From Escherichia coli (GTDB taxonomy: Bacteria > Pseudomonadota > Gammaproteobacteria > Enterobacterales > Enterobacteriaceae): a DNA stretch of 64,000 nt. Made by a program: the position numbers. The DNA is taken from NCBI RefSeq assembly GCF_016026235.1, contig NZ_CP065613.1; one strand, written 5' to 3'. Below, piece after piece: positions 54,801 to 57,800 of the stretch; within the stretch, counting starts at the first letter, position 1; each line of letters begins with the position of its first letter.

Positions 54801-57800
54801 AGCCCTTACGGGCCATCAGAGTTGTTATCTGCGACGTTTACGCCGTACATTTCACCAGACCGCGGTGATCAACTGGCGCGACACCAGCGTCAATACGCAC
54901 TTTCGTTGTCACGCCATCCACACTGAAGCCCTCCATCTGATCAATATATGGCGTATCCACACCGTTGAGATAAGCCACTTCAATCGTATCGGAGCCTTTG
55001 GACGCAGCCAGGTAGAAGGTGGTCTGGCTGTTATCATCAAGACGAGGCTCTGCAATAACGGTCGCAAAATCTTTCACCGGGTTAATAATACCGGCGTTAA
55101 TGTCAGCCCCCTTGACACTTGAGGAGCGAATGACCTGGTTAGCAACAGACTCCATCGCCGTCGGTACCAGTACGAACGCAGGACGAATATTCAGATGACG
55201 CTCACCCTCTTTCTGAACACGCATCAACTGGCGGGCTTTATCCAGCGATGCCACGTCCATTGCAGCGCTCTCCAGTACGTTTGCATGTTTCGCTTTATCG
55301 AACAGACTTACATTATCTGTGGAGATTTTCGGGTTAGACGTCAGAATGGCATAAACCAGATCGGCAATAGTGGATTTTGCCGCACGGCCCAGTTTCATCG
55401 GGACATCGGTCAGCATATTCAGATCATCGTTGATAATGGCCTGACGGGTGATACTGAACAGTTCACCATAGGTCGCCAGTGCAATCGTGGCCTGTTTATC
55501 TCCGGTAGTAACGTATTTATATTCCGCTCCTTCACGCACCTGACGCAGAGCACTGAAGCCCCCATACCCACACGATGGGCAATTTTAAAATCAGACAGCT
55601 GACCTTTCCGCGTCCACTGTTCATAGGTTTCAGGGGCATCTTCCCAGCCCTGCAGAATGGCTTTGTTCGCAACATCCAGCAGAATATTACCGAAGTCAGA
55701 CGTACTGTGTGTGAACGCTGCCCCGACCATCTGCATCGGGTTATAACCGGAAACCCCAATACCCCGTTCAGTCAGTGACATACGGGCATATTCACGCAGG
55801 GTCATCCCGTTGTAGACATTATCACGTTCAGTTTTTTCAAACCCGGCACGCGCCATCAGCGCCTGGCGGATCCCGTCCCCCACAAAATTACCGTTTCCGG
55901 CATAAATATGGGCCGGGGTATTTTTATTTGATGGTGAAAATTCCTTACCCATTTCGTTAAGTAATTTCTCACGGGCCTGCTCAAGCGAGCACTCCGGATC
56001 GGAAAGACAACTGGCCTGCAATGTCTGATAACGCCCGCCAAACATACCAAACAGTTCATTAATACCACTCACACGTGCTTTTTGCTCTGCCAGTACCTGC
56101 GCACGGATACTGCTTTCATCTGCGGAAGGTGCATTTGTGGTGGTCGCGGTTGTGGCAACCTGAGCCGTAGTCTGCTCCTGTGTCTGAGATGCAGTATTTT
56201 GTTTTCAGGTTCACGCGTTGCACTGTTGCGTGGCGGAGTAATCATGTTTCGAATGGATTCCGGCATCTTTTTAAATTCCTCTGTACGTTTTGACTGAATA
56301 CATGCCATTGCCTTAACGGCTGGCGTCACCTGATCAGCAAATCCATGTGCCAGACATTCGGCACCGGACATCCAGGTCTCATCCGCCAGCATGGCAGCAA
56401 CTTCATCGGTGGTTTTCCCGGTTTTCTGTGCATAAGCGGGTAACAGAACCGCCTCAACTTTATCGAGCAGGTCGGCATAGGTGCGCATGTCCTCCGCATC
56501 ACCGCCCGTAAAGCCAAATGGTTTATGAATCATCATGAAGGTGTTTTCCGGCATAATGACCGGGTTTCCCACCATCGCAATGACCGACGCCATTGATGCC
56601 GCCACACCGTCGACATAAACGGTAATGGACGCACCATGTGTTTTCAGTGCATTAAAAATGGCGATGCCTTCAAAGACATCGCCACCCGGTGAATTGATAT
56701 GGAGATTAATGTGGGTGATATCGCCCAGTGCATTCAGATCGCTGATAAACTGCTTCGCCGTAACACCCCAGAAACCAATCTCGTCATAAATATAAATATC
56801 CGCGTCACTCTGGTGACCTGCCTGCATCCTGAACCAGGAATTATTCTTCGGACTGGCCGTCGGTGTGCTGCGGCTCCTGTCGTTTCGTTGCGACACTGCT
56901 GCCTCCTTTATCACTGGCCGGATCGGTATCAAATATCAGACCCAGCTTGCGGTTTTCATCAATTTCAGCCTTGCGCCGACGTTTGACATCATCCGGATTA
57001 CGCCCACCTGCTCGCACCCAGTCTGATTCTGTCGCCGCTCCACCGCGAATCTGGATTTTCCAGGCCTCAGCCTCCTTAACCGGATCAATCCACGGCATGA
57101 CCGGACCGGAATATGTTGCGTTACACAACGTTTTCATATCCACATCCGACGGGATTTTCAGCAGACCTGCTGCTACCACCATGTTCAGCCACGTCCGGTA
57201 CACGGGACGGGTTACAGCACCAATAAAGCAGTCCTGCAGGATCAGATACCCGTCAGTGGACTCGACCAGCTCCTGTCGCTGAGCGCTGTAGGTACCGTTG
57301 TAATTGCGCGCCGCACTGGAAAAACTCATACGACTGCCTGCGGCCACCGCACGCAGCTGCCCGTTACGAAAAGTTTCAAGGTTAGGATTGGGCCGATCAG
57401 ATTTGACCATGCCAATATCTTCCCCCTTGCGCAAATCGTCATAAATAATGCCAGGGGTGATATGCAGTTCCCGGTCATTATCTTTATTTATCGTGGCGTC
57501 TTCATAATCCTGCCCATCTCCTTTACGGATATACAGCCCCAGAGCCGCAGCAACACGCGCCGCTGTCAGCTCAGCATCTTCATATTCCTTAAGCGCACTG
57601 ATCCGCATCAGCACACCTGACAACATGGATGTACCACGCGTCTGATGCAGACGACGGGTAAATTTCAGATGCACCATATTTTCGGCAACGATCTCTTTGG
57701 TATCACTCAGCCGCCCGGTAGTCGGATGATTTTTATAAACCAGGTATTTTTTCGGTCTGCCCCAGTCATCCAGAAAAACACCCTGATTCAACCCCACAGA

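Follow-up and report, generated by a model that had tools for sequence, protein, structure and literature searches.

The 64,000-nt stretch of Escherichia coli contig NZ_CP065613.1 analysed here (the window) contains a lambdoid prophage that carries head, tail and packaging genes beside an ipaH type III effector gene. The ipaH gene adjoins the prophage, and the host is an enteroinvasive-type E. coli. The head module of this prophage includes a gene for a fusion of a ClpP-like prohead protease, a scaffold-like linker and an HK97-type major capsid protein, that is, the 'tripartite' head gene of lambdoid prophages of the Gifsy-2, cdtI and mEp460 type. In the sequence as written, this gene is distributed over three reading frames, which, together with the two flanking genes, are arranged as follows.

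54428..54751, minus strand: DUF2190 / Phage_cement_2 head decoration gene, 107 aa, intact
54838..56896, minus strand: the whole disrupted fusion gene, 2059 nt (2061 nt and 686 aa in the intact form)
54838..55558, minus strand: frame C, with the C-terminal ~240 residues of the capsid domain (Phage_capsid_4 positions 57-261, E = 1.7e-45)
55419..56196, minus strand: frame B, with the scaffold-like linker and the first ~50 positions of the capsid domain, without a native start
56069..56896, minus strand: frame A, 275 aa, with the protease domain (~232 native residues, CLP_protease match) followed by ~43 out-of-frame residues and a stop
56841..58346, minus strand: portal gene, 501 aa, intact, sharing 56 nt with the beginning of the fusion gene

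The fusion gene starts with a GTG at position 56896, which is located within the end of the portal gene and has the sequence AAGGAGG just ahead of it. The initial annotation had recognized two separate ORFs in this region and had placed the start of the N-terminal one at a GTG at position 56072. This codon is incidental, the native start being that at 56896, and the ORF in question (55419..56072) is the part of frame B that follows it; the second ORF (54838..55539) is contained in frame C. The order of the genes, namely, portal, protease/capsid and decoration, is the usual one, and the head module as a whole (terminase, head-tail joining, portal, fusion, decoration) is organized in the same way as in E. 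coli FDAARGOS_943 and in phage cdtI. A terminator-like hairpin is located just upstream of the DUF2190 decoration gene.

Domain architecture and family of the fusion gene

Addition of one A and one G to the sequence of the window yields a 686-aa ORF that is 100% identical to the protein encoded at the corresponding locus (L021) of a sister assembly, namely, NCTC assembly GCA_900449985.1, contig UGFA01000002.1, which carries the exact portal protein of the window. In the intact 686-aa protein, the Pfam domains CLP_protease and Phage_capsid_4 occupy amino acids 31-191 and 390-683, respectively, the latter with E = 2.5e-54 for the sister protein, to which the repaired ORF of the window is equal. 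The same protein scores 983.7 bits against the NCBIfam model NF045540 (cut-off 475) and 215 bits against NF045542, Clp_rel_HeadMat (cut-off 120). In the window as written, the protease domain is recognized by Pfam within the ORF 56069..56932 (CLP_protease, E = 9e-37), but the two domains are not found in one continuous ORF, being spread over three frames. The window sequence is a disrupted or mis-sequenced member of NF045540 and not a member of another family. The initial annotation had treated the gene as that of a stand-alone major capsid protein; the capsid domain is indeed there, whereas the stand-alone gene gives way to the ClpP-protease/scaffold/capsid fusion of NF045540.

The fusion gene is common. 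It was detected in 2027 of the 5426 complete E. coli genomes, as well as in phages cdtI, mEp460, phi458, Ayreon and others, and the homologues carry an annotation of the NF045540 type, 'ClpP-like prohead protease/major capsid protein fusion protein'. Members of the family that can be named include orf5 of phage cdtI, mEp460, Fels-1 and many E. coli prophages. The 'tripartite capsid gene' of Gifsy-2 is that of Effantin et al. (2010, Virology 402:355), as it is cited in PMC12315714. The window gene has in common with the Gifsy-2 gene and with NF045540 the order of the ClpP-like protease, the linker and the HK97-type capsid domain, and with the neighbourhood typical of the family the portal gene upstream and the DUF2190 decoration gene downstream; its DNA identity with phages of the cdtI and mEp460 type is 94-96%. 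The difference from the family consists in the ORF being cut into three frames, and after repair the window gene has no distinguishing feature.

Split capsid domain and five homopolymer contractions

The ORF listing of the window contains the two ORFs 55419..56072 and 54838..55539, both on the minus strand and in different frames, as originally described, and the run of five Gs on the coding strand (five Cs on the plus strand), to which the frameshift had been attributed, is located exactly at 55559-55563, in the coding context ...GGTATGGGGGCTTCAG...; around this run, the minus strand of the window reads ...CATCGTGTGGGTATGGGGGCTTCAGTG... Because the fragments match consecutive parts of the Phage_capsid_4 profile (positions 7-49 for the upstream ORF and 57-261 for the downstream ORF, by Pfam), the split is not a chance pattern of ORFs. 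We aligned the region with two intact homologues, the copy in FDAARGOS_943 (99.7% identical) and that of phage cdtI. In this alignment, the junction predicted for a G6 run, ...FKIAHRVGMGGFSALRQVREGAEYKYV..., is the peptide that is encoded by the G6-bearing FDAARGOS_943 copy and by phage cdtI. That the capsid gene is split by a missing G is real in the sequence as given, and no full-length capsid protein is encoded by this sequence, which is broken into three frames. However, the single G that had been proposed as the repair is insufficient, given that the gene would still be broken by a second 1-nt loss at 56197-56200, one that had previously escaped notice.

The copy in FDAARGOS_943 that shows 99.7% identity belongs to a different prophage of that genome than the one at the orthologous site. 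The prophage that occupies the ipaHd site in FDAARGOS_943 has a lambda-type head (S49 peptidase, D, E) and was rejected as an orthologous reference for the head region. Comparison of the window with the FDAARGOS_943 prophage copy revealed altogether five single-base losses in the prophage, all of them in homopolymers and all within genes.

48818..48821, minus strand: C5 to C4 on the plus strand; tail tape measure protein truncated near the C-terminus
52060..52063, minus strand: C5 to C4 on the plus strand; tail assembly chaperone gpG frameshifted upstream of the G/T junction
55559..55563, minus strand: G6 to G5 (C5 on the plus strand); frameshift at approximately residue 445 of the fusion protein, inside the capsid domain
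56197..56200, minus strand: A5 to A4 on the coding strand; at approximately residue 232-233, within the linker that follows the protease domain (A5 in FDAARGOS_943 and in the sister assembly)
61038..61042, minus strand: C6 to C5 on the plus strand; gene for a DUF1441 protein, just upstream of the large terminase gene, frameshifted

The exact gpJ and tail-fibre proteins of the window were found in UGFA01000002.1 and in no other retrievable contig, and the chromosomal position of the prophage in that contig is the same, beside ipaH, dinI, yecD and aspS. Over 35.9 kb (window positions 28108-64000), the two sequences differ by two SNPs, at 49167 and 62663, by one IS that is present only in the NCTC contig, and by exactly five 1-nt contractions; the ORFs of all five contracted genes are intact in the NCTC contig, where the respective runs are 5-6 nt long. 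In the 18.7 kb upstream of the head/tail block (28108-46844), there are no differences from the sister at all. Likewise, that portion of the prophage which is unique and encompasses J, the tail fibre gene and lom has no lesions relative to the sister. The contracted runs account for 5 of the 74 runs of at least 5 nt in the interval 46845-62287, versus none of the 158 such runs elsewhere (Fisher p = 0.003), and a 25.5 kb stretch of backbone compared with FDAARGOS_943 shows 10 SNPs and no gaps. A model of sequencing error operating across the genome was rejected on the strength of the unique backbone, which contains no single-base indels against two references; by the same token, errors, if there are any, must be specific to the repeat. 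The other ipaH-linked loci (L028, L030 and L031) were uninformative in the comparison with the sister, being 97-98.6% identical, which reflects genuine divergence.

In the light of this comparison, the original statement that the prophage could not form particles stands for the sequence as written, in which three more morphogenesis genes are hit. As a biological conclusion, it is doubtful because all five genes are intact in the otherwise identical sister prophage and the pattern of the differences looks technical.

Shorter alleles in other genomes

Among the complete E. coli genomes that carry the 81-nt segment surrounding the G tract, the longer allele is present in approximately 1815 of the 1821 (~99.7%, by extrapolation from the matches listed). 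Among the matches listed, all genomes save five have the in-frame G6, and so do phages cdtI and mEp460. The five genomes with the G5 allele (5 of ~1820 complete RefSeq genomes, or about 0.3%) are 08-00022, CRE10, CEC01302, LR-17-1 and NCTC9699; in each of these, the contraction is the sole lesion of the fusion gene, the neighbouring genes are intact and the gene bears the PGAP label 'frameshifted'. These genomes represent at least four sequence backgrounds that are no closer to each other than to the G6-bearing cdtI. The PGAP-annotated pseudogenes share with the window the same G6-to-G5 contraction in the same tract, but theirs is a single lesion in the gene, whereas in the window the fusion gene has a further lesion and the prophage another three.

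The exact 233-aa C-terminal fragment is encoded by 134 to 354 public contigs, mostly with G5. We did not accept this number as proof of a real common allele because most of the sampled contigs carry other homopolymer contractions and the allele is found in only ~0.3% of the complete RefSeq genomes. In particular, seven of the eight G5 contigs that were sampled show at least one further change of homopolymer length, which in five of the eight falls inside a gene, and a ninth sampled contig has G8 at this run and an extra base at nearly every run. In other assemblies of the near-identical prophage, too, nearly all differences concern the length of homopolymers, at sites distinct from those described here; L020 has seven indels and, apart from four SNPs close to the repeat edge, no substitutions, and L018 has two indels. 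Subsets of the contractions described here are found elsewhere, namely, those in the tape measure gene (C4), gpG (C4) and the capsid gene (G5) in CP026824.1, and that in the capsid gene (G5) in JAALAC01. Judging by the four or more backgrounds in which G5 occurs among the complete genomes, the G tract can contract independently, in nature or in sequencers.

Conceivably, the contractions are genuine, with the G6 tract of the capsid domain acting as a natural slippage hot spot at which a widespread head gene is recurrently and independently knocked out, although we consider this scenario unlikely. Should it be correct, the tract would provide a repeatable route by which prophages that carry ipaH are locked as non-inducible cargo in E. 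coli and enteroinvasive E. coli (EIEC), and the accumulation of five hits in a single prophage would further imply that a mutator episode had occurred in the past.

A far less probable possibility is that the tract functions as a contingency switch that turns the production of the capsid on and off in a population. Such phase variation would fit the independent changes of tract length, that is, the G5 in at least four backgrounds and the G8 in one error-prone assembly. However, the tract is only 6 nt long, whereas known tracts of this type mostly comprise at least 8 nt; the off allele is limited to 5 of ~1820 complete genomes, and most of the variant contigs also show other changes of homopolymer length. 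A long tract with frequent on and off alleles among close relatives, as would be typical of such a switch, was not seen in these data, the tract being of 6 nt and the off allele being confined to the same 5 of ~1820 complete genomes.

It is similarly improbable that the G5 run is a site of recoding, where a -1 slip on AUG_GGG_GCU, with re-pairing of tRNA-Gly on GGG, or else transcriptional slippage, yields a functional capsid protein. A -1 slip at G5 would, as read from the sequence, regenerate exactly the wild-type peptide ...MGGFS..., and programmed frameshifts are employed in the structural genes of some phages; moreover, the annotation of relatives of the prophage (L004) shows G and T as two separate genes lying side by side, an arrangement like the G/G-T one of lambda. 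Against this, recoding is unnecessary for the ~99.7% of homologues in complete genomes that carry the in-frame G6, the functional phages cdtI and mEp460 retain G6, the gene contains a second frameshift at an unrelated A4 run, and leaky slippage would not provide the hundreds of copies that a capsid requires. Among the homologues in complete E. coli genomes and in phages cdtI and mEp460, we found no conserved need to shift frame.

Origin of the contractions

The explanation that we favour, with a probability of about 0.6, is that the five contractions are residual homopolymer consensus errors that lie in a repeat and stem from long-read or hybrid assembly. Under this explanation, the contractions would be absent from the DNA of the organism, and the errors in homopolymer length would have been left in the consensus of a stretch that would have a nearly exact second version in another prophage of that genome; they would survive there because such a repeat blocks the unique placement of the reads that is required for polishing. 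Both the technical cause and the hybrid long-read source are inferences.

The genome of the sister contains a second copy of the prophage block, L020, which is 99.9% identical to the window over positions 50656-61649, and within 1 kb on either side of four of the five sites there are no mismatches to this copy. The fifth site (48818-48821) is a counterpoint to the technical explanation, in that the DNA surrounding it is only 96.9% identical to the L020 copy.

The kinds of changes observed are also informative. Against the sister, the ratio of indels to SNPs is 5:2 in 35.9 kb, and all five indels are contractions. In mutation accumulation experiments with E. coli, indels amount to approximately 10% of the base substitutions in the wild type and to approximately 20-25% in mismatch-repair mutants. 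If 10-20% of mutations are taken to be indels, the probability that at least five of seven events are indels is between 2e-4 and 5e-3.

In long-read bacterial assemblies, the commonest residual errors are those in homopolymers, and in repeats such errors persist after short-read polishing, according to the Polypolish paper (Wick & Holt, PMC8812927). As in the errors described in that source, the differences in the window are exclusively those of homopolymer length, being contractions of runs of 5-6 nt; the affected block is duplicated within the sister genome, the unique DNA is free of errors, and indels outnumber SNPs. Compared with the repeat errors as presented there (PMC8812927), the window departs in one respect, namely, that one of the five sites lies outside the perfect repeat with the copy that was examined.

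The principal alternative, which appears possible but distinctly less probable, is that the frameshifts are real, so that the head, tail and packaging genes of a decaying, defective prophage have been inactivated by replication slippage in short homopolymers and the capsid fusion gene is an ordinary pseudogene. Several observations are in line with this alternative. Where unique DNA allows a check, the assembly proves accurate; the same G5 allele is annotated by PGAP as frameshifted in the five complete RefSeq genomes, with their distinct backgrounds and intact neighbouring genes; subsets of the contractions are common to CP026824.1 and JAALAC01; and the host belongs to a lineage with IS elements and ipaH, in which related prophages contain IS insertions and pseudogenes. 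Decaying prophages are plentiful in the genomes of enteroinvasive E. coli and Shigella. On the other side, five indels versus two substitutions is a proportion remote from natural mutation spectra; one hit would already inactivate the prophage, so that five are not accounted for by selection; J, the tail fibre gene and lom, in the unique part of the element, are without a lesion; and the assemblies in which these contractions recur are long-read assemblies too, and contain many homopolymer discrepancies.

Two additional considerations run counter to the explanation by assembly error. Purifying selection acting on real mutations would result in an equally clean backbone, and real G6-to-G5 events are plausible, given that G5 is the sole lesion of the gene in at least four backgrounds.

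The distribution of the exact gpJ of the window counts in favour of the assembly-error explanation and of a long-read or hybrid source. This protein is limited to the NCTC assembly and one genome annotated by PGAP, which is absent from the collection of complete RefSeq genomes; no protein records exist in the latter genome for the frameshifted fragments, as would be the case for PGAP pseudogenes.

Whichever explanation is correct, the gene belongs to a known family and the defect is of a known kind, with no new mechanism involved, and the main value of the present observation is as a quality flag on the assembled sequence. If the contractions are real, this is a routine defective prophage. If they are assembly errors, we are probably dealing with an intact prophage that may be inducible, and at least four of its genes would be mislabelled as pseudogenes by annotation pipelines.

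Homopolymer lesions in the prophage and in related assemblies

The initial annotation held that the addition of one G to the G5 run at 55559-55563 would restore the major capsid frame, but the head gene, a fusion of ClpP-like prohead protease, scaffold-like linker and major capsid, remains broken after this one-base repair because it harbors a second 1-nt contraction, A5 to A4 on the coding strand, at 56197-56200, in the linker past the protease domain. Three other prophage genes are each disrupted by a single-base homopolymer contraction:

48818-48821, tape measure gene
52060-52063, gpG gene, upstream of the G/T junction
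61038-61042, DUF1441 gene

All three genes are unbroken in the NCTC sister assembly (GCA_900449985.1), which carries a near-identical prophage and, in addition, a second copy of the head/tail block:

UGFA01000002.1 643354-664859, second head/tail-block copy (L020)

This second copy differs from the first by six one-base insertions in A/T runs and by the A5 to A4 linker contraction, with SNPs found only near the repeat edge. These differences look like residual long-read error, which would then be present in the NCTC assembly too. In another public assembly (GCA_026134585.1, JAOWNT010000001.1), nearly every homopolymer of the region is one base longer, the capsid tract is G8, and each gene of the region is fragmented by the +1 insertions. 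This long-read assembly is either over-corrected or laden with errors, and its gene fragments contaminate protein databases.

The ipaH-linked site and the host lineage

At its tail-fibre end, the prophage adjoins an intact gene, with dinI, yecD and aspS alongside:

38108-39859 (+), ipaH-type (IpaHd) T3SS E3 ubiquitin ligase gene, 583 aa

This gene marks the host as a member of an enteroinvasive E. coli/Shigella-like lineage, though the matching records all bear the E. coli label. The orthologous ipaHd-linked site of FDAARGOS_943 (762000-811000) combines the same tail genes as in the window with a lambda-type head module that consists of an S49 peptidase, a decoration protein and a separate major capsid protein. 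This combination indicates that the resident prophages of the lineage have exchanged modules.

Mobile elements and structural differences

One insertion sequence lies between pphA and copD, together with about 0.5 kb of unplaced DNA (up to 9293):

8000-8767, IS1 copy, 768 bp, 99.9% identical to the IS1 of FDAARGOS_943

The yebY region occupies this site in E. coli CX21, and in FDAARGOS_943, a prophage integrase adjoins yebY. Within the 35.9 kb compared, the sole structural difference found between the window and the NCTC sister is an IS3-family element (L021, the sister prophage region, 4796-6058), which is inserted in the sister between the KilA-N and lysis genes, at the equivalent of window position ~62284-62287, and is missing from the window. 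The alignment with FDAARGOS_943 breaks at 16136-16160, where the window shows a 25-nt overlap and the reference a gap of ~12 nt, which suggests a difference in the length of a short tandem repeat near yebG.
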